Position numbers and translations under genes: made by a program. A DNA stretch of 32,000 nt from Candidatus Jordarchaeales archaeon (GTDB taxonomy: Archaea > Asgardarchaeota > Jordiarchaeia > Jordiarchaeales > Freyrarchaeaceae): assembly GCA_038858525.1 (NCBI GenBank), contig JAWCFL010000006.1, positions 30,001 to 62,000 on the forward strand. Direction: 5' to 3'. A model generated the notes under the pieces. It made no database searches, was not told the origin of the DNA, and was given only the letters and a program-made list of their open reading frames with translations. This document shows, in pieces, positions 11,871 through 25,053 of this stretch (position 1 is its first letter; each line of letters starts with the position of its first letter).

Positions 11871-12817
11871 TCAATCTGGCTGGTGCTCGGCGGGCTCTAT
11901 CGGTGTTTTCGTGGGTTTTTCACATCCCCTCTTGGTTACCAGAACAGGAATCTTGGTTACCAGAACAGGAATTTCCAGCCTTAATCCTCCCACTCCAGGC
12001 TTATTTATCTGGAGGTAAAGTTCTTCAACCATTCCTTCTCTAAACTCATAGCTCGTCCAAGGCTCAAAGATAGTTATCGGCGGATACCACTCATGTCCGA
12101 CTATTCCTATTCCGTGGCCGAAGACTGGTGGCGTATGTGGCGCATACTCCGTCTTATTGAGCTTCTCCATGATTTTTTTCGCGACCTCGCCGACAGTTAC
12201 CCCCGGCGCAACGTTGTCTATTAAAATATAGGAAAGCTCGACGAACGTTTCAATCATCTTCCTCTGTTCGTTGTCTGCCTTCTCCATGACGACGTTGTAT
12301 GCGAGGTCAGAATAGTAGAGTTCATATGTAGAGTGCAACTACCATTACTATTTCTCCTTCTCTGATAACCTTATTTGATGGAGGGGTGCAGCCGCACCTC
12401 GAATACCCACCCCTATAACCTGACGCTACCTCGTCCCCTCCCGTTATCGGCCAATTCCACATCGAGCCGAGTTCTCTCATCACCTTCTCTCCCGCTCCAA
12501 GGACGCTGCCTCGGTTACTCCTACTCTCAGAGCCCTCAAGGCAGCCTTTATCCCCTCATCAGCTATGCTGGCAGCTTTCCTCATCCTCTCTATTTCAGCT
12601 GGCTCCTTGATCACCACAGCCTCATTCATAACCTTTGAAGCGTTAACAAAGGTGGCGTCAGGAAGCTTCTCCTTCAGCATTGTGTACTCTGCTTGATTTA
12701 TCACGCCTTCAATGAGACGCGGCGTCACCTCCGCTTCTATACCTATAACTGCTTTTTCAAGTCCCAGTTCCTTAATTCTGCTAGCAACCTGTTCAGGCCA
12801 ATAATAACCGTTGTCGG
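11871..12817 (-). pseudogene. Second M24 peptidase, pseudogene: 5'-truncated by IS607, with two frameshifts
   Basis: Three frames join to ...SDNGYYWPEQVASRIKELGLEK...IKEPAEIERMRKAA...VGVTE[fs ~12505]VLGAGEKVMRELGS...EIVMV[fs ~12340]LHSTYELYYSDLA...GHGIG..GHE...; the N-terminus is not found beyond the IS. Confidence 0.8.
11931..11972. repeat. Perfect 21-bp tandem duplication (IPVLVTK x2) in the peptidase pseudogene
   Basis: CTTGGTTACCAGAACAGGAAT at 11931-11951 and 11952-11972. Confidence 0.95.
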
Positions 12818-12910
12818 ATAGTTAATTTTTTATAACTATCCGTTCCACCTCGGCTAAAGCCTCATGGGTGGCTTTCGCCGCCAACGGTAAAGGACGGCAC
12901 ATGGAGAGTT
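12816..12910 (-). ncRNA. Putative TnpB reRNA (omegaRNA) scaffold overlapping the tnpB 3' end
   Basis: ATGTGCCG..CCGTT..CGGCGAAAGCC..CCCATGA (12902-12862), shared with IS607 #2, followed by a 10-bp perfect inverted repeat (12815-12824 / 12833-12842). TnpB reRNAs are known to overlap the tnpB 3' end and the right end. Confidence 0.6.
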
Positions 12911-13997
12911 TTCCAGCTATGTTCCAAGCGGCGACCAAGTGTCTATCTGCTTGGAAGCCGCACCGCCTGCATTTGAAGACGTGCCCATTCGGCTTACTAA
13001 TTTCGCCACACATCGATGTCCTAGAGGTGTTTTCAGGCTTAACGGTTTCAGGCTTAAAGCCATGCTCCATCCCCTTATAGGAGATGTAGAACTGGATTCT
13101 TCTGAATGGTATGCTGTGGAGCCTCCTATTCATCACCCCACCATACCGAATCCTCTCCCTTATGTGGGTGAGCTCCTCCATTACAGGCTTAACGTTTTCC
13201 TCGGCAACCACACCAGCTACAATCTTCGCCGCCCTATGAAGTACGTCGTTCACCCTCCGCCTCTCCCTCCCAGAATACTTCGATAACAGCTCAGCTTTTG
13301 TCTCCCCCGAGGTCTTACCCTGAATGCTCCTCCTCTTCCTGAAGTACCTGCCTCTAATGTGTTTCGCCTCACTTATATCTATCTTGATGAACCTGACCTT
13401 ACCCGGCTTCACAACAGCCAAGTCTATACTACACTCGTTAACATCGATGCCCAGCACGCCTTCGGACTTTCTCTCCTCAACCGTCCTCCTAAAAGTAACA
13501 TGAAGATAGTATTCGTTATTAAATTTTACAAGCCTTGAGCCTTTAACCTGCCAACCCATGAACTTCATCGAATGCTCATGAACCCTGAACGGAATCGCGA
13601 TGTGTCCTTTGTGCGTAGCCAGCCTTACGCATCCCCAACTGAACCAGAACAGGTGGGCGTCGTCCAAAAGAATGGTGTTTAGTTTCTCAATTCTTGGAGG
13701 GTTAATTTCCCCCCTCTTCCTAGAGAGCCTCCTGTAGGACTTGAATATGCTTAGAGCTTGTGTTATAGCCGTATAAATGTAATGGGATGGGTGGTTCGGA
13801 TACTTCGTCCTCAGCTCCTTATAAATTGCTTCATGAAGCCTCCTACGTGAGGTCACATTTAGATTCATAGCCCTATCTAGGCATGCTTTAACCATTTCGG
13901 AATAGCTCTTGAAGAGATCCTCGAGAACGATTGCTTGTTCATCGTTGGGCTGGAGCTTAAACTTGCAGGTCTCATTCAGCAATAAGCTGCCTGACAC
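12822..13997 (-). CDS. tnpB: TnpB (IS607-associated RuvC-family RNA-guided nuclease), probably catalytically impaired
   Basis: GIDVN (RuvC-I), MEEL (RuvC-II), C-terminal CRRCG..ADRHLVAAWNI; open ORF of 391 aa. Confidence 0.9.
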   Translation of the reverse strand: MSGSLLLNETCKFKLQPNDEQAIVLEDLFKSYSEMVKACLDRAMNLNVTSRRRLHEAIYKELRTKYPNHPSHYIYTAITQALSIFKSYRRLSRKRGEINPPRIEKLNTILLDDAHLFWFSWGCVRLATHKGHIAIPFRVHEHSMKFMGWQVKGSRLVKFNNEYYLHVTFRRTVEERKSEGVLGIDVNECSIDLAVVKPGKVRFIKIDISEAKHIRGRYFRKRRSIQGKTSGETKAELLSKYSGRERRRVNDVLHRAAKIVAGVVAEENVKPVMEELTHIRERIRYGGVMNRRLHSIPFRRIQFYISYKGMEHGFKPETVKPENTSRTSMCGEISKPNGHVFKCRRCGFQADRHLVAAWNIAGKLSMCRPLPLAAKATHEALAEVERIVIKN

Positions 13998-17610: not shown

Positions 17611-18186
17611 AATCTCTCTGAAGAATCGCTGAACGAGCCTGACTTCAAAAGCGTTAAGCATCGAGGACTTTGGTTAAATCCATCACGTGCTTTTTTCATT
17701 CTTTTTGTTACATCCAAAATATTGAGACATACAAATAAATTGAGATATAAAGTGAGGAATAAACTGCAAAGTGCATCGTCAATCAATAATAGCATTTTTG
17801 GCCCTAGATTCTTGAACGGCAAGGTTCCTCGTAGTTAACACGGAATTTCTCCGCCGTTCCTAAAATCTGACCTGGCAACTGCACTTCACCATTCCCCACC
17901 ATAGTTACAATTTTTTAACCTTCAACTTACTTGGTTTTTCTGAGAACGAGCACAGAAACGCACACTGAAAGACCTCGAAGTAGTTTATCATCAGCGAATT
18001 CAAATGCAGGCGTTCAGCGCCTTAGCGCACCTTAAAGCCCTAAAGTTAACATTAACTGTTTCTAGGTTGCTAAAATATTCTCCATGAACACTCCACAAGA
18101 GAAAAATCATCTTCGCAAAGGGGGGTTAATAAACAGTTTCTATCTAATATAAAGTTTATTATCTTGCATATAACTTTGGTGACCTT

Positions 18187-18802
18187 GTGCCTGAGAAGCT
18201 CTACACTAATGGTGAGGTTGCGAGGACTTTCGGGGCTTCCTATGTCGCTGTTAAGAAGTGGGCTTATTCTGGTAAGGTTAGGCTTATTAAGACGCCTGGC
18301 GGGAAGTATAGGTTTCCCGAGAGCGAGGTAAAGCGGCTTCTTGGAGGGCGGACTCCGAAGGGAAGGGCTGTGATTTACGACAGAGTGGGTGCAGCTGACC
18401 AGTGGGAGGATTTGGAGAGACAGAAGCAAAGGCTCATTAGGTATGCCAAGAGTAGCGGCTACAGGATATAGTGGTTCTTGAGGACATAGCTTCCGGGTTA
18501 AACGAAGAATAGGAAGAGCTTGATGAGGCTTTTTGAAGTGGTTTCACAGAAACAAGTGGAGGTCGTCTTCATAACATAGGGATAGGCTTACAAGGTTCGG
18601 CTTCAAGTATTTAGAGGCATTCTTTAATTCTCATGGCTGTAGAATAGAGTGCTTAGATGCTGAAGAAGTTAAGGAGCCACAACAAGAGCTTATAGATCTA
18701 ATAGCCATAGTTACGAGCTTTGCTGGGAGAATCTATGGAGCGAGAAGCAATAAGAAGCGGAGGGTTGTGGAGGCTGTTGAGCAGACGATTAGAAACAATT
18801 AA
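18187..18802 (+). pseudogene. tnpA: IS607 TnpA pseudogene #2
   Basis: VKKWAYSGK...TPGGKYRFPESEV, AVIYDRVG (catalytic Ser lost), DLERQ, then shifted EDIASGLNE, RDRLTRFGFKYL and DLIAIVTSFAGRIYGARS; at least three frame breaks. Confidence 0.88.
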
Positions 18803-18975
18803 ACTAGCGGCGAGCTTCAAGCTGAATGGTTTTGTGCCAGACCGAGTTATTCCAAGCCTACAGGCAGATATTAAGCGAGCTCTTAGACTATGCCTGCGAT
18901 AGGGGAGTCTCAAGCTTTAAGCGCTTAAAGTCCGAGAAGTATTGTGACTTAAGGGCGAGGTACCCGAGCTTGCCT

Positions 18976-19221
18976 ATATCAGCAGTTTCGTGGTATATAG
19001 GTTTAAATAGAGGTTGATTACTTTGTTCTTAATGATGTCTACTCTAAAACCTGCCCAGTCTGTTCAGGAAGCATGGCTTCCTATCCGGGCAGGATATTAA
19101 ACCTTCAGATGCGGGGAGAAGGGTTCCCCCAAAGAGCCCTCAATGAGTTAATCGAGGGGGAAGGGTTAAGTAGGAATGAAGGTAACAATTCACTATGTAT
19201 TCCTACTTAACTCAGAACCCT
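18976..19221 (+). mobile_element. Non-autonomous mini-element #1 (promoter + tnpB-tail-derived structured RNA), inserted in tnpB #2
   Basis: Removing it rejoins the codons CCT(P) and TCA(S). CCT occurs at 18973-18975 and 19219-19221. It carries a relic frame YSKTCPVC...LNLQMRGEGFPQRALNE and several hairpins, and is related to 23881..24154. Confidence 0.8.
19002..19011 (+). promoter_or_regulatory. TATA box of mini-element #1
   Basis: TTTAAATAGA; the identical 10-mer sits at the equivalent position of mini-element #2. Confidence 0.6.
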
Positions 19222-20104
19222 TCACACTACATTTATACTGCATGCCCGATGGCATGCTTAATATACAAATCCTTCAGGAAGCTGAAAGGGAGGAATAAAG
19301 TTAGGTTAGGTCTGAAGCCGCTATTCAGGAAAGACGTTATAATGCTCGACGACCACCTATTCAGCATGAACCTCGATAAATGGGAAGCTCCCGTTGCAAC
19401 GGAAGCTGGGAGAATAGTGTTCAGAATCCTTCATGGAACATGTCATGAGAAGTTCAGGGGCATGAAGGTTGGGCAAGCATGGCTCGTCAGAAGGCGCGAT
19501 GGCCATTATTTGAAGGTTGTCTTCAGCAAGACCGTAGAGGTTGCTGAACCTAATGGGAAAAAATTGGCTATAGACGTAAATGAAGCAGCGTAGCCTACGG
19601 CACGGAGAACAAGATAGGCGTCCTTAAGACTGGCGAGAAAGCCATAAGGACGGCATACTTCCTGAAGATGCGTAGACTCCAATCCAAACTGAGGCTCAAC
19701 GAGAAGCCGATACTTGCGAAGTATAGGGGTAGAGAGACGAGGAGGGTGGAGGCAATCCACCATAAAATCGCAAACAGTCTCATCGAGGAGGCTAAGAGAC
19801 AGGGCTGCACAACAAAATAGTCCTCGAAGACCTCAAGCACATCAGAAGACGCATAAGAAAATCTAAAGCTCTTAACGGCAGATTGAATAGGTGGGGCTTT
19901 CAGAAAACTCCAGCACATCATAGAATACAAGGCTAGCTTAATAGATTAAGCGTATTTTATGTTAAAGCTGGGAGCACATCAAGTCTATGCCCAAAATGCA
20001 GGGGCAGGCTAAGCCCAAGCGGGTATAGGCTGATGAAGCGCCCAAGATGCGAACTGGAGGAGGACAGAGATATAGTAGCCGTGAAGAACCTCCTCCAGAG
20101 AATC

Positions 20105-20165
20105 CAGATAGATGTGCCGGCTTCACCCGTTCACGGCGAAAGCCCTCCCATGAAAGGAGGAAAGA
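20105..20165 (+). ncRNA. Putative reRNA scaffold of IS607 #2
   Basis: ATGTGCCGGCTTCACCCGTTCACGGCGAAAGCCCTCCCATGA (20112-20153) aligns with the motif at 12902-12862. Confidence 0.55.
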
Positions 20166-20353
20166 AGAAATGAAAGTTAACACTGGATCAGAACGGCAGG
20201 TGAGCAAGAGAAGAAGAATCTATCACCTCTTTGTCGCAGCGAAAACATGCAACTTAATTGGAACAGCGTTTTTAGACAGGAACATTTGCTCTCACGATAC
20301 ATCCTTTTTAGTTACATGTCAGCCACATCTGTCCCTAGGAACTCACTTTCCCT

Positions 20354-21412
20354 CTAATATATTTCTTCTTCACCTTTTTTTCCCTCCCCGGCCATTACCT
20401 TGACCTTCTCTTCCTTGACCTTCTCTTCCTTGACCTTCTCTTCCTTGACCTTCTCTTCCTTGACCTTCTCTTCCTTGACCTTCTCTTCCTTGACCTTCTC
20501 TTCCTTCCCGATTTTCTTTCTCAGCTTCTCATCCAGTATTTTTAGTACCTCTATGGCATACAGGCTTCTGCCGCAGTAAGGGCACTCGATGACGTTGCCG
20601 CTTTCAGGAAGCTTTAGTTTTCCTCCACAATGCGGGCATGCAATCTCCTCAATTATTAATCCTCTGGTTTTTAGCAGCAAGCGTATATGTTCGTAGCTCT
20701 CTTTTTCCTCAAAAAACACGCCGATTTCTGAAGCAAGCTGATCAAGACGCTCATCGAAATCTTTCCTGAGTAACTCCACTTTCTCACCCTGAGCTTTCAC
20801 TATGTTCGGCCACTCCGCTTTAAGCTTCCTGTATTTATATTCAACATTGTCTAAATTCGAACGCAGTTCGTCATTAAGCTTATCTACGGCCTTTTTTATC
20901 TCTCTTCCTTCCTTCTTCAACATTTTTATTTCCTTACGAGCTGTGGGACTTATCAGTGGAGACAACACATAAAGAATGTGGGCACCGTATAACGCTAACC
21001 CAAATAACAGACCAGGCAATCCATAGCTATAAATAAGTATAACAGTAACAAGGAAAATTGAGGTATGCAAGCAGCACACAAAGAGCTTTCTAAACCTATC
21101 CTTTGCTTGATTCACGTACATCATTAACGCGTCTTCTAACTCGTGAAGCTTATAAGTTAAAGCCTCTATTTCCGGCGTATACTTATTTCGTAATTCGTCG
21201 CATTCTTTTACTTTCGCGTAATCTAAGCCTCGCACCATTAACTCATACTTTCTGCTTTCATCATTAAGGACACGTAAATCCTCGGCCAGCTTCCTTAACT
21301 TGCCTCTTAGCTCAGGCGCAAGCTCCGTGTACTCGAAACCGTACCCCAACTTCGACTCAAGCATCTTTTTTATTTTTCTCTCGTTCTCCCTAACCCGCTC
21401 ATCATAATACAC
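20354..21412 (-). CDS. Hypothetical membrane protein: coiled coil, TM hairpin, zinc ribbon, (KEEKV)7 tail
   Basis: Heptad-rich N-terminal half; hydrophobic LFVCCLHTSIFLVTVILIYSYGLPGLLFGLALYGAHILYVL; CPHCGG...CPYCG. Confidence 0.8.
   Translation of the reverse strand: MYYDERVRENERKIKKMLESKLGYGFEYTELAPELRGKLRKLAEDLRVLNDESRKYELMVRGLDYAKVKECDELRNKYTPEIEALTYKLHELEDALMMYVNQAKDRFRKLFVCCLHTSIFLVTVILIYSYGLPGLLFGLALYGAHILYVLSPLISPTARKEIKMLKKEGREIKKAVDKLNDELRSNLDNVEYKYRKLKAEWPNIVKAQGEKVELLRKDFDERLDQLASEIGVFFEEKESYEHIRLLLKTRGLIIEEIACPHCGGKLKLPESGNVIECPYCGRSLYAIEVLKILDEKLRKKIGKEEKVKEEKVKEEKVKEEKVKEEKVKEEKVKEEKVKVMAGEGKKGEEEIY
20398..20506. repeat. 15-bp perfect tandem repeat, 7 copies plus 4 nt
   Basis: CCTTGACCTTCTCTT x7, encoding KEEKV on the - strand. 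Confidence 0.97.
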
Positions 21413-21931: not shown

Positions 21932-23515
21932 GTGGAGGAGAACATGAAGAGAGCGGCATGGAGAACTTACATGGCAGTGTTGCTAGTAGGAGTGCTGGCG
22001 CTCACATTGGTAGCAATGCAAATATCAACGCCAGCACAAGCACAAACACAACGAACGATACAAAAGGCTCAAATGACATGGGCAAAAACGTATGGAGGAA
22101 CGTATGGCGACTCCGCTTTTCGTGTGGCTGTTGATGGTCAGGGGAACATCATAGTGGTAGGCGAAACATGGTCCTTTGGTGCTGGTGGTAGTGACGTTTG
22201 GGTCTTGAAGCTTGACCCTAACGGGGACCCAACATGGCAGAAGGCGTATGGAGGAACGTATGGCGACTCCGCTTTTCGTGTGGCTGTTGATGGTCAGGGG
22301 AACATCATAGTGGTAGGCGAAACATGGTCCTTTGGTGCTGGTGGTAGTGACGTTTGGGTCTTGAAGCTGAACGCCTCAGGTAACGTCATCTGGCAGAAAG
22401 GATACGGAGGAGAGAGCAAAGATTACGCTTGGGGTGTTGCTGTTGATTCTCAGGGAAATATAATAGTAGCGGGAGGAACTGAATCCTTTGGTGCTGGTGG
22501 TAGTGACGTTTGGGTCTTGAAGCTGGACCCTAACGGGGAACCAACATGGCAGAAGACATATGGGGGAGCGAGCAACGAGTGTGCTCTTGATGTTGCCTTT
22601 GATGTTCAAGGAAACATTATAGTGTCAGGGTACACTTACTCCTTTGGTGCTGGTGGCAGTGACGTTTGGGTCTTGAAGCTGGACCCTAACGGGGAACCAA
22701 CATGGCAGAAGACGTATGGAGGAATAAACGACGACTATGCTTCTGGCGTTACTGTTGATGCTCAGGGGAGCATAATAGTAGCGGGAGGCACAAACTCCTC
22801 TAGAGCTGGGGGATGGAACGTTTGGGTTTTGAAGCTTAACAGCTCAGGAGACACCATATGGCAGAAAACGTATGGGGAAGCGAAGACTGACGTTGCCTAT
22901 GATGTTACTGTCAACGCCCAAGGAAACATTATAGTGTCAGGGTACACTTACTCCTTTGGTGCTGGTGGCAGTGACGTTTGGGTCTTGAAGCTGGACCCTA
23001 ACGGGGAACCAACATGGCAGAAGACGTACGGAGGAACTTATGAGGACTGTGCTATGGGAGTTGCCGCCGATAATGAAGGTATAATTGTGGCTGGGTTTAC
23101 GTCATCCTTTGGTGCTGGGCTTCGAGACCTCTGGGTTTTGCGTATAAGTTCGAATGGTGAAATTTACAATTCAATATCCGAATTCACCATAAAAAATACT
23201 AGCGTGGCGCCTACAACAACAGCGGCTTCCCCCTCACCTACTAACGCTGCAATTTTATCGACGAACGCGAACTTGAGCGATACGCAAGCAATAATAACAA
23301 ATACCAACGCGGCAATAAACACGCAGGCACCGCCTTCCCCATCCTTTTCACCACCTATTGAGGAGCAGTTTTTGCTTCTGCTTCTAGTCCTCGGGTTGTA
23401 TGACTCGGTGGAGAATGCATCTCGAAGTAGTGTGGTTTCCATTGGCTTTTTCATAATTCTTTTTGGCGACATCAGTTTGTACGTTTTTCTTTATCGAAGG
23501 TGGAGACTTGCGTGA
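21932..23515 (+). CDS. Cell-surface protein with seven 52-aa repeats (predicted 7-bladed beta-propeller) and a C-terminal membrane anchor
   Basis: Signal peptide; WQKTYGG...GNIIV.G.T.SFGAGGSDVWVLKLDPNG repeats; Thr/Asn/Ala-rich linker; hydrophobic tail ending YRRWRLA. Start may be ATG 21944. Confidence 0.88.
   Translation: MEENMKRAAWRTYMAVLLVGVLALTLVAMQISTPAQAQTQRTIQKAQMTWAKTYGGTYGDSAFRVAVDGQGNIIVVGETWSFGAGGSDVWVLKLDPNGDPTWQKAYGGTYGDSAFRVAVDGQGNIIVVGETWSFGAGGSDVWVLKLNASGNVIWQKGYGGESKDYAWGVAVDSQGNIIVAGGTESFGAGGSDVWVLKLDPNGEPTWQKTYGGASNECALDVAFDVQGNIIVSGYTYSFGAGGSDVWVLKLDPNGEPTWQKTYGGINDDYASGVTVDAQGSIIVAGGTNSSRAGGWNVWVLKLNSSGDTIWQKTYGEAKTDVAYDVTVNAQGNIIVSGYTYSFGAGGSDVWVLKLDPNGEPTWQKTYGGTYEDCAMGVAADNEGIIVAGFTSSFGAGLRDLWVLRISSNGEIYNSISEFTIKNTSVAPTTTAASPSPTNAAILSTNANLSDTQAIITNTNAAINTQAPPSPSFSPPIEEQFLLLLLVLGLYDSVENASRSSVVSIGFFIILFGDISLYVFLYRRWRLA
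22079..23165 (+). repeat. 156-bp intragenic repeat x7
   Basis: Trp codons at 22079, 22235, 22391, 22547, 22703, 22859 and 23015, an exact 156-bp spacing. Confidence 0.95.
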
Positions 23516-23880: not shown

Positions 23881-24154
23881 AGGATTCTGAACTGCGTAGT
23901 CTTTGGTAGACTTGTGTAGCTCTTGGTTTTCATCGAGCCCGTTCTGGGCTCACATCGCTCTCTAACCCTGTCGAGTCGAACCCGCCCCATACATCCACGC
24001 CAAGCCCTTTCGAGCCTGAGGTCATCTGTATGGGGAAAGTCCCCCCATCTGAAGGTGGCATCATCCGTAGGAAGCCATGCTTCCAGAGCAGAGCCCGGCT
24101 CCGGAAAGGTTAATGAGCAAGTCTATTTAAATCTATCTTGAAACTGTTTTTTGA
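23881..24154 (-). mobile_element. Non-autonomous mini-element #2 (ORF-less structured RNA cassette related to mini-element #1)
   Basis: On the - strand: CCT | TCAAAAAA CAGTTTC .. TTTAAATAGA .. GGAAGCATGGCTTCCTA (24084-24068) .. ACCTTCAGATG (24056-24046) .. TCAGAATCCT. The flanking CCT copies are AGG on + at 24155-24157 and 23881-23883. Confidence 0.75.
24122..24131 (-). promoter_or_regulatory. TATA box of mini-element #2
   Basis: TTTAAATAGA on the - strand, directly upstream of the structured region. Confidence 0.6.
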
Positions 24155-24308
24155 AGGCGCTTCGCCGCCGTTTTTGGCATTGTAAATTTCCGGCGTGCCG
24201 CCCTTATCGTTGGCGGTGAAAACCCCTCGGGAGCTTTAATCGTGGAAGATGAGAAAGGTAGAATCTGTTGACCCCACGAAGGTGGAATCATCGTTGAGGA
24301 GATAGTGA

Positions 24309-24827
24309 TTAATCTTTTATTTCGTCGTTTGTTGTTTCCCAGAGCCACTCTAGAGGGTTTTCCGTTTCTACAAATTTGAATTGTTTAAAGTCCTTTATGT
24401 TTTCTGTCCATATGAATTCCACTTTTCCTCTTGCTGTGCAAGCTAGTAGTGCGTCGAAGAAGTCTCCGCCTCTTAGTCCGATTCTTTCAGCCTCAAGCAC
24501 CGCTTCCCTGTAATCTTCGATTGTCGGCTGCAGTTTCCGTATTGCAGTTGACTTAAGGTAGGCTGTGCATATTTCGGCTGCGCGGCTTGGGCTTAGAGGG
24601 TTCTGAACCTTCCTGCTCGTGATGACCGAGTAGAGCTCGGCTATGTTTTGGAGGCTGACGTATGCCTCCAGGAATCCTAGGACTGCAGCCTTGATTATCA
24701 CTGCCGCGCCTCTGTTACTGGGACTTAACTCGTCACTGGCATAGCAAAGGATCATTGTGTCGAGTAAAACGCGTTTCCCGTAGTGCTCGGTTTCAGTTAT
24801 ATCCACTCCGTTAACGAGTATCCTCAT
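24309..24827 (-). CDS. vapC: PIN-domain (VapC-like) toxin
   Basis: LLDTMIL, QNIAELY, DFFDALL and WTENIKDF acidic PIN residues; overlaps the upstream antitoxin gene. Confidence 0.85.
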   Translation of the reverse strand: MRILVNGVDITETEHYGKRVLLDTMILCYASDELSPSNRGAAVIIKAAVLGFLEAYVSLQNIAELYSVITSRKVQNPLSPSRAAEICTAYLKSTAIRKLQPTIEDYREAVLEAERIGLRGGDFFDALLACTARGKVEFIWTENIKDFKQFKFVETENPLEWLWETTNDEIKD

Positions 24828-25053
24828 ATATTTCCCTTCTGCTGAGGTGTGGGACGCCGATTTTCGCGGGCTTTTCTAGGATTTCGAGGAGCTTCTCGTC
24901 CGCGGTTTTCCTCTTGAGTTTCGCCTCGAAGCTCCTACTGCTTGTCAGCCTGATTTCGAGCTTGTCTCCGTCTTCAAGTCCAAGGGCCTCCCTCACCTCT
25001 ACGGGAATGTAAAGCTTGCCCTTATGGTATGTTCCGACTCCCAAGCTGGACAC
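24811..25053 (-). CDS. AbrB/SpoVT-type antitoxin
   Basis: GKLYIPVEVREALGLEDGDKLEI AbrB-fold signature, directly upstream of the PIN gene. Confidence 0.85.
   Translation of the reverse strand: MSSLGVGTYHKGKLYIPVEVREALGLEDGDKLEIRLTSSRSFEAKLKRKTADEKLLEILEKPAKIGVPHLSRREIYEDTR

Follow-up and report, generated by a model that had tools for sequence, protein, structure and literature searches.

The stretch analysed here (the window) comprises 32,000 nucleotides (nt) of Candidatus Jordarchaeales archaeon (GenBank assembly GCA_038858525.1, contig JAWCFL010000006.1, positions 30,001 to 62,000 of the forward strand), and its subject is a 246-bp mini-element, designated E1, that interrupts the tnpB gene (tnpB #2) of a decayed IS607-like insertion sequence (IS), designated element B. 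Element B was single-copy in the assembly; its tnpA contained stop codons, read Gly in place of the catalytic Ser and held three stops within the resolvase match, and its tnpB #2 carried at least two frameshifts in addition to stops. A second, diverged mini-element, E2, was present on the opposite strand, and E1 and E2 both lay within 12 kb, in a cluster formed by three IS607-like elements in decay. An intact tnpB of a further family (tnpB #1, element A) in the window was used for comparison. Coordinates are collected in Table 1.

Excision of positions 18975-19220, exactly 246 bp, restored an uninterrupted 173-codon tnpB #2 frame, and the protein read from it aligned with residues 26-190 of intact tnpB #1 and was gapless at the joint, where KYPNHPSHYIYTA in tnpB #2 corresponds to RYPSLPSHYIYTA in tnpB #1 (...RYPSLP/SHYIYTA... 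versus KYPNHP-SHYIYTA; slashes mark junctions here and below). The letters across both junctions of the locus read ...CCGAGCTTGCC/TATATCAGCAGTTTCG ... CTTAACTCAGAACCC/TTCACACTACATTTATACTGC..., with CCT at 18973-18975 and again at 19219-19221, so that the boundary of E1 can be slid by 3 nt; neither end sequence of E1 occurred a second time within the window. Natural alleles were sought in public hot-spring assemblies (X1, X2, X3 and X18, the last being a metatranscriptome library). Contigs representing the empty allele, in which 18972 is fused to 19219 (246 nt skipped, with the 3-nt ambiguity), were found in X1, X3 and X18 and belong to relatives approximately 93-96% identical to the window (flanks 4-7% off it). 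The filled left junction was spanned by contigs of X1 and X2 and the filled right junction by X1, and a 105-nt contig of X3 spanned the private deletion joints of E1 at 100% identity with zero mismatches. Since filled and empty junction contigs both occur in public runs, an assembly artefact is excluded, and E1 is a real and precise insertion that is polymorphic among related populations. The precise 246-bp insertion proposed in an earlier reading of the window from its letters and open reading frames (ORFs; hereafter the sequence-only reading) was therefore confirmed by both the restored frame and the natural contigs. That reading had further suggested looking for empty alleles and for their depletion; the alleles were found, and the depths in X3 (571 for the empty allele and roughly 95 for the filled one) are uninformative on cleavage, because the two alleles differ by 4-7% in their flanks and belong to separate populations. 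Contigs of the X18 metatranscriptome covered 19095-19222, and one X18 contig had the empty allele; contigs of this kind cannot show strand or ends or exclude DNA carry-over. The high-depth relative with the empty allele in X3, compared over window positions 18461-19814, differed by small insertions and deletions (for example, +G after 19583 and -1 at 18505 and 18842), of which at least the change at 19583 would remove the stop or frameshift seen in the window; element B may be intact in that relative.

Table 1. Positions in the window of E1, its parts and related sites. C numbers give locations elsewhere in the same assembly.
Feature	Positions	Strand	Details
Mini-element E1	18975..19220	+	246 bp; BLAST to parent C24:26778-25395 and partial copies C14, C17, C25, C53
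Host-derived target motif TTGCC (candidate TAM)	18970..18974	+	Leu-Pro codons of tnpB #2
Left copy of CC crossover core	18973-18974	+	within TTGCC
E1 left end	18975..19040	+	66 bp; 90% identical to C14 left end over 68 nt
Left-end family motif TCAGCAGTTTC	18979-18989	+	conserved in left ends of other genomes
TATA-like box TTTAAATA	19002-19009	+	common to all left ends of the family
Retained hairpin block	19043..19096	+	54 nt; 89% identical to C24:25623-25570
Right-end omegaRNA-like scaffold core	19097..19220	+	last 124 nt; 94% identical to C24, 95% to Brockarchaeota copy L010
Right CC core	19219-19220	+	terminates scaffold core
Predicted guide template TTCACACTACATTTATACTG	19221..19240	+	tnpB #2 codons Ser-His-Tyr-Ile-Tyr-Thr
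Host element B, decayed IS607-like	18100..20250	+	three-frame translation; tblastn pieces in three frames
Site in intact tnpB #1 equivalent to the guide target	13768..13787	-	3 mismatches to the 20-mer of the sequence-only reading; ...CACCCA upstream, no GCC
E2, second diverged mini-element (~277 bp)	23881..24157	-	sequence read; ~5 kb from E1

A parental copy of E1 in the genome was an element of ~1.38 kb on the minus strand of C24, which matched E1 in three blocks, the left end of E1 being closest to the C14 copy. The parent consists of a left end, a gene for a helix-turn-helix (HTH) protein of 61-72 amino acids (MerR/HTH_17) and a gene for a TnpB of ~384 amino acids, with Pfam matches to PF12728, PF07282 (Cas12f1-like_TNB) and PF01385 (OrfB_IS605); the latter two matched the copy on C17. 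DVNLTN, ILENLK, CPxC...CxxC and DRD (RuvC D-E-D and zinc ribbon) are conserved in the alignment of family TnpB proteins, and in these motifs the parent agrees with a TnpB/omegaRNA (OMEGA) transposon, E1 itself having lost the gene: no ORF of 50 amino acids or more was present within 18975-19220. The left end kept in E1 reaches as far as the opening codons of the HTH gene of the parent, and the parental counterpart of the retained hairpin block codes for the zinc-finger region (CxxC...SMASY). E1 is without a 51-nt linker, which other mini-elements have shortened as well, and carries at its left end a 7-bp palindrome (CCTATAT...ATATAGG) that was absent from other copies. From its likeness to the archaeal TATA consensus, TTTAAATA would be a promoter element, and transcription would then start just upstream of the kept modules. 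Short, devoid of ORFs, with both parental ends kept and with a precise empty site (246 bp versus 1.38 kb), E1 resembles palindrome-associated transposable elements (PATEs) and miniature inverted-repeat transposable elements (MITEs). Its exact form was single-copy in the genome and showed no amplification there; amplified mini forms were present in a Brockarchaeota metagenome-assembled genome (MAG). The three-block match marks E1 as an internal-deletion derivative of the ~1.38-kb element encoding HTH and TnpB proteins.

The right end was examined for RNA structure with RNAalifold, which, applied to 28 right ends, gave 23 consensus pairs, eight with compensatory changes; within the terminal hairpin, U-A was replaced by C-G in seven sequences and A-U by C-G or U-G in seven. 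The module comprises the terminal hairpin of 8 bp, a second, internal hairpin (CCCTC/GAGGG) and a long-range helix (GGGTTC/GAACCC). This helix closes the module exactly at the boundary (as GGGUUC/GAACCC in RNA) and, being invariant, shows no covariation. Because several G-U pairs would be C-A on the opposite strand, the structure belongs to the tnpB-sense transcript. Upstream, the hairpin within the zinc-finger coding region showed compensatory changes in both stems across 31 family members, the encoded residues varying (GSMAS to GRMAA, GYLVA or GRMSA) while pairing persisted; the E1 stem contained one A-C mismatch. A covariance model built from the right-end alignment scored E1 at 134 bits, as high as full-length copies; E2 was missed by the model on account of its divergence and of an insert. 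A scan of the whole window at Rfam gathering thresholds returned no family, hence no known omegaRNA or group I intron model. By these alignments E1 retains a conserved, covarying 3' RNA module, which overlaps the 3' end of tnpB in the parent and stops exactly at the right boundary. The parental matches and this module together support the identification of the insert, in the sequence-only reading, as a miniature TnpB element.

Family right ends were constant up to ...C(T/C)CAGAACCC in about 45 insertions, and the very next base was variable. GCC was found in 28/28 distinct left flanks scored, by a script that retained only GCC flanks, and the four loci that it skipped also read TGCC. Position -4 of the left flank was T in 15, C in 9, A in 4 and G in 0 cases, position -5 was T or A (13/11), and a subfamily-specific spacer of 3-4 nt separated the flank from TCAGCAGTTTC. 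Since the TTGCC at E1 consists of host Leu-Pro codons, the motif is a requirement of the target, similar to a transposon-adjacent motif (TAM), and not element sequence. CC was shared by both junctions of E1, of the C24 element and of all paired loci. The base after CC differed between the two ends in seven elements (L010, L011, L013, L016, L017, L021 and L044), so that nothing beyond CC is duplicated; the idea of a duplication of 3 bp (CCT in E1, CCG in C24) was rejected on account of these seven paired elements of other genomes. The CCT of E1 is best read as a CC core with a T that follows by coincidence, as does the G in the CCG of C24. The sequence-only reading had the letters of CCT at both junctions right, the relevant shared core being CC.

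Because the family right end is fixed at ...GAACCC (19220), the first base of the guide is predicted to be 19221, which moves its start one base upstream of the earlier proposal. The claim that the guide past the right end is tnpB #2 coding sequence stood, and the register was corrected from GCCT and 19222 to YGCC and 19221. A guide role for 19221-19240 is predicted by analogy with the TnpB and IS607 literature. As expected of a TAM, the empty site joins the left-flank motif to the guide match, and this empty joint was seen in nature. No second matching guide target was found in this genome assembly; the best other match was to the tnpB #1 family, with three mismatches and ...CACCCA instead of ...YGCC. 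The sequence-only reading had correctly reported the tnpB #1 site as a 17/20 match with CCCA upstream and had set it aside as a target, a judgement with which the three mismatches and the missing invariant G of GCC agree.

A scan of species-representative genomes yielded 69 family loci, in which full-length elements measured 1346-1380 bp and shortened ones of 271-704 bp were common; protein-less derivatives retaining RNA modules arose repeatedly and independently. TnpB homologues of 70-86% identity were present in MAGs of Bathyarchaeia, Brockarchaeota, Nitrososphaerota, Thermoproteota and Jordarchaeia, and this degree of protein identity across several archaeal phyla suggests recent horizontal spread of an element without its own transposase. 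At least 12 mini-elements (271-704 bp; L044-L071) occurred in the Brockarchaeota MAG JAFNIV01, most of which keep the zinc-finger hairpin and the right-end module, and these form a good data set for defining a minimal omegaRNA. The C24 element (G000:C24:25395-26778, L002) and L010-L043 share a fixed architecture with no recombinase catalytic domain. Regarding the cognate nuclease, the tnpB on C24 carried two frameshifts, and the cognate copies other than those on C24 and C17 were cut by contig ends; an intact frame of 373 amino acids was found in a congeneric genome (copy at G006:C1:432157-433549). On C17 (~150-180, L004) the tnpB is otherwise open and has Asn for the RuvC-I catalytic Asp (SFNVNLTN versus SFDVNLTN in all relatives); the nuclease is dead unless the change is a sequencing variant. 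The cognate TnpB that the sequence-only reading had invoked to use the guide was thus not visible in intact form in the assembly, given the two frameshifts on C24 and the Asp-to-Asn change on C17.

E2, with left flank GCGCC and right end ...CAGAATCC, interrupts, in antisense orientation, what is left of a heavily decayed gene similar to tnpB #1, at the codons for RuvC-III ADRH. A match across the E2 excision joint was obtained with an nhmmer profile built on 3' ends of the tnpB #1 family (E=5.6e-16), and the protein-level signal of the remnant was weak (E=0.04). A third, orphan right-end RNA module at C42:7667-7797 (minus strand) is a relative of the E2 subtype, ends ...CTCAGAACCC and has no tnpB upstream; it lies outside any recognisable tnpB, and none of the full-length family copies in this genome lies inside tnpB sequence.

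With respect to the enzyme that moves the family, the small HTH protein shared 43-51% identity with the HTH at the N terminus of TnpA, the IS607 serine recombinase, in elements A and B. The same CC was present at both ends and in the target, without inverted repeats or target duplication, as at an IS607 core. An IS607 TnpA combines a MerR HTH with a resolvase domain, and the full-length copies hold just the HTH ORF of 61-72 amino acids; when an ancestor of this small gene with fused HTH and resolvase domains was sought, just three longer proteins came up, none with a resolvase domain, which is weak evidence. The genome (92.7% complete) contained 10 resolvase-domain matches, and an IS607 TnpA whose frame is apparently open lies at C18:36977-37562. 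A serine-recombinase TnpA acting in trans may mobilise the family.

In IS607 IStrons, the core dinucleotide is common to both ends, the TAM includes the core (TGGG), excision leaves a precise donor joint, and 40 bp of left end with 60 bp of right end are enough for it (Zedaveinyte et al., 10.1101/2023.11.20.567912). The E1 family resembles these elements in its shared core dinucleotide and core-containing TAM (YGCC in place of TGGG), in a precise donor joint that rejoins TAM and target, in an omegaRNA that would end at the right boundary and in the shortness of the ends that IStron excision needs. It differs in that the core of E1 is CC and not GG on the omegaRNA strand, that only an HTH homologue exists in place of the serine-recombinase catalytic domain, and that E1 is without a group I intron (no Rfam hit). 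Protein-less PATE-like elements are also known to encode an omegaRNA and to rely on TnpB in trans (Meers et al., 10.1101/2023.03.14.532601). TnpB cuts the rejoined TAM-plus-target donor joint, after which recombination restores the element. Such PATEs, like E1, are protein-less, keep both ends and the scaffold, borrow transposase and TnpB and take the right flank as guide. Whereas they are of IS200/IS605 type, the ends of E1 are IS607-like, share a CC core at the two junctions and are devoid of subterminal Y1 hairpins; E1 further resides in an Asgard-type archaeon, descends from a parent with an HTH-only gene instead of a transposase and is nested in another tnpB. Archaeal MITEs such as the SM elements of Sulfolobus are short internal-deletion derivatives of IS elements that are mobilised in trans and often nested in other IS elements. 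Terminal inverted repeats and target duplications are typical of classical MITEs, which carry no guide RNA, whereas E1 has neither the repeats nor the duplication and carries an RNA module. Non-autonomous derivatives consisting of an omegaRNA only are thus already known, and E1 adds an IS607-like archaeal case.

E1 is probably a non-autonomous, protein-less, MITE- or PATE-like derivative of an IS607-derived archaeal element encoding HTH and TnpB proteins, nested in element B by incident and not by design. An internal deletion of the parent would have kept the 66-bp left end with its TATA-like box, a right end of at least 124 bp and the two RNA modules, and conservative recombination at CC within TTGCC would have placed the product in the Leu-Pro codons of the element B tnpB. 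If transcribed, an RNA begun at the left-end promoter and extended past the scaffold to the flanking DNA could yield an omegaRNA whose guide, from 19221, matches the empty TTGCC/TTCACAC... site. Cognate TnpB supplied in trans would then cut just emptied or never-filled alleles, and repair from a filled chromosome copy would restore E1, as in ordinary TnpB retention or homing. The tnpB content of the guide would follow from the landing of E1 at a place where insertions are tolerated, here an IS that is dead or dispensable and part of a decaying cluster.

Several observations weigh against this reading. The parent is without a recombinase domain, and an autonomous version was not found. The A-family IS607 elements end ...CAACGG, with a GG core on the omegaRNA strand, and not in CC. 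The assessable cognate tnpB copies, on C24 and C17, appear defective, and E1 may be an inert relic in this strain. E1 and E2, that is, 2/3 of the protein-less family members here, both lie in tnpB remnants; TnpB-like DNA makes up ~1.0% of the assembly, which gives a naive binomial P=0.003 for 2/8 insertions; and eight hot-spring metagenome contigs of one tnpB subfamily hold a perfect TTGCC and guide match of at least 24 nt. With regard to the enzyme, E1 might instead be an IS200/IS605-type PATE, inserted 3' of TTGCC by a Y1 tyrosine transposase through single-strand 'peel and paste', as its conserved pentanucleotide-like left-flank motif, the lack of target duplication and the existence of PATEs of this type would allow. 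This is scarcely credible: no Y1 transposase (PF01797) was detected in the 92.7%-complete genome although control genomes were positive, the family carries an IS607-type MerR HTH, the same CC dinucleotide stands at both junctions, and the left ends have no conserved subterminal palindrome, the CCTATAT/ATATAGG of E1 not being shared. That E1 is an untranscribed, immobile deletion product, its structure inherited rather than maintained, is unlikely; the defective cognate genes, the one copy of its exact form, the mismatch in the upstream hairpin and the surrounding cluster of dead IS copies speak for it. Such a relic fits poorly with a right-end module whose identity to modules next to an open tnpB frame is 94-95% and whose covariance-model score equals theirs, or with deletions that spared both RNA modules, the TATA-like box and both ends, likewise in independent mini-elements; moreover, the cognate copies cut by contig ends may be intact, as is the frame in the congener.

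The sequence-only reading had proposed an inter-transposon conflict, with the guide directed at uninterrupted copies of a rival tnpB family. Stated as hyperparasitism, mini-elements would prefer the tnpB of rival IS607 families, and their guides would hit uninterrupted copies, spreading the mini-element or disabling the rival; protein-less omegaRNA mini-elements would thus home, via borrowed TnpB, through a motif of multi-copy IS tnpB genes and inactivate the rival nuclease. The tnpB locations of E1 and E2, their low naive P value and the perfect metagenome matches all point this way, as does the position of E1 at a protein-conserved motif (LPSHYIYTAC). Both the preference and the homing through rival copies are nevertheless judged highly improbable. 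A guide that matches the element's own empty site is the generic TnpB retention design, and its tnpB content is trivial after a nested insertion. E1 (residue ~68, sense) and E2 (residue ~348, antisense) lie in different tnpB families and have no common homing site. A lack of tendency toward tnpB genes, named beforehand in the sequence-only reading as an outcome that would count against it, is what was found: 0/68 flanks from other genomes, including those of the at least 12 mini-elements, matched a 16-member TnpB panel (400 nt each, E 0.01 or better), a test that detected the E1 right flank as positive control at 8e-15 and that very decayed remnants would escape; the full-length copies and the C42 module here are not in tnpB either. 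The supposed rival is single-copy and decayed, with no second target in the assembly. If IS debris is taken to occupy 5-15% of the tolerated insertion space, P for 2/8 rises to 0.06-0.34.

As for the metagenome matches, an exact search (TTGCC plus 15 nt of target) gave nine hits, namely eight tnpB contigs and one unrelated chance match (L082), and all eight also share the next 9 nt of the target, so that some hot-spring organisms do contain multi-copy targets perfectly matched to the E1 guide. By contrast, when homologues of tnpB #2 were drawn independently from 300 genomes of the phylum, the peptide LPSHYIYTAC was conserved, the 20-nt target differed from the guide at 3-6 positions, and GCC was missing in many of them. 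Nucleotide-level selection on the target was considered and rejected, since the exact hits represent one subfamily picked by the search and independent homologues mismatch. The eight contigs (among L079-L087) have an identical 29-nt TTGCCTTCACACTACATTTATACTGCATG in common though only 67-71% identical to element B overall, and L084 and L087 are truncated by a stop just after this shared site. The location of E2 in a tnpB remnant leaves a small residual chance of a tnpB preference. Dedicated targeting of one transposon by another is unsupported, and E1 appears to be an unremarkable nested insertion by an element of a familiar type.

Read as an incidentally nested derivative, E1 provides a clean natural case of an IS607-type omegaRNA-only mini-transposon in an Asgard-type archaeon, with filled and empty alleles in public data; a new mode of inter-transposon conflict is not revealed on present evidence. 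The locus helps to define a widespread archaeal family with an HTH-only gene and TnpB, a CC core, YGCC as candidate TAM and a right-end RNA module of ~120-190 nt, and this definition could aid the annotation of archaeal MAGs and the choice of compact thermophilic TnpB/omegaRNA pairs.

Further features of the window and genome were recorded. The right end of the tnpB #1 (A) family (window 12807-12830, minus strand) is conserved to ...CGACAACGG, after which copies diverge; copies were located on C7, C45, C39, C29, C54, C19, C9, C11 and C35. The core at this end is the canonical GG, and an ACCGTTG lying upstream is complementary to the final 7 nt of the end, a closing-helix design that is the same as that of GGGTTC/GAACCC in the E1 family. 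Nine tandem 15-bp units (20368-20547) lie inside a minus-strand ORF (20354-21412), and six 156-bp tandem units (22076-23155) inside a plus-strand ORF of 527 amino acids (21932-23515), both repeat-containing genes being placed between IS remnants. Directly upstream of E2 (24310-24990, minus strand), a small AbrB/SpoVT-like ORF is followed by a PIN-domain-like ORF, by eye a VapBC-type pair. The flanks of several full-length family copies adjoin multi-copy small gene families.

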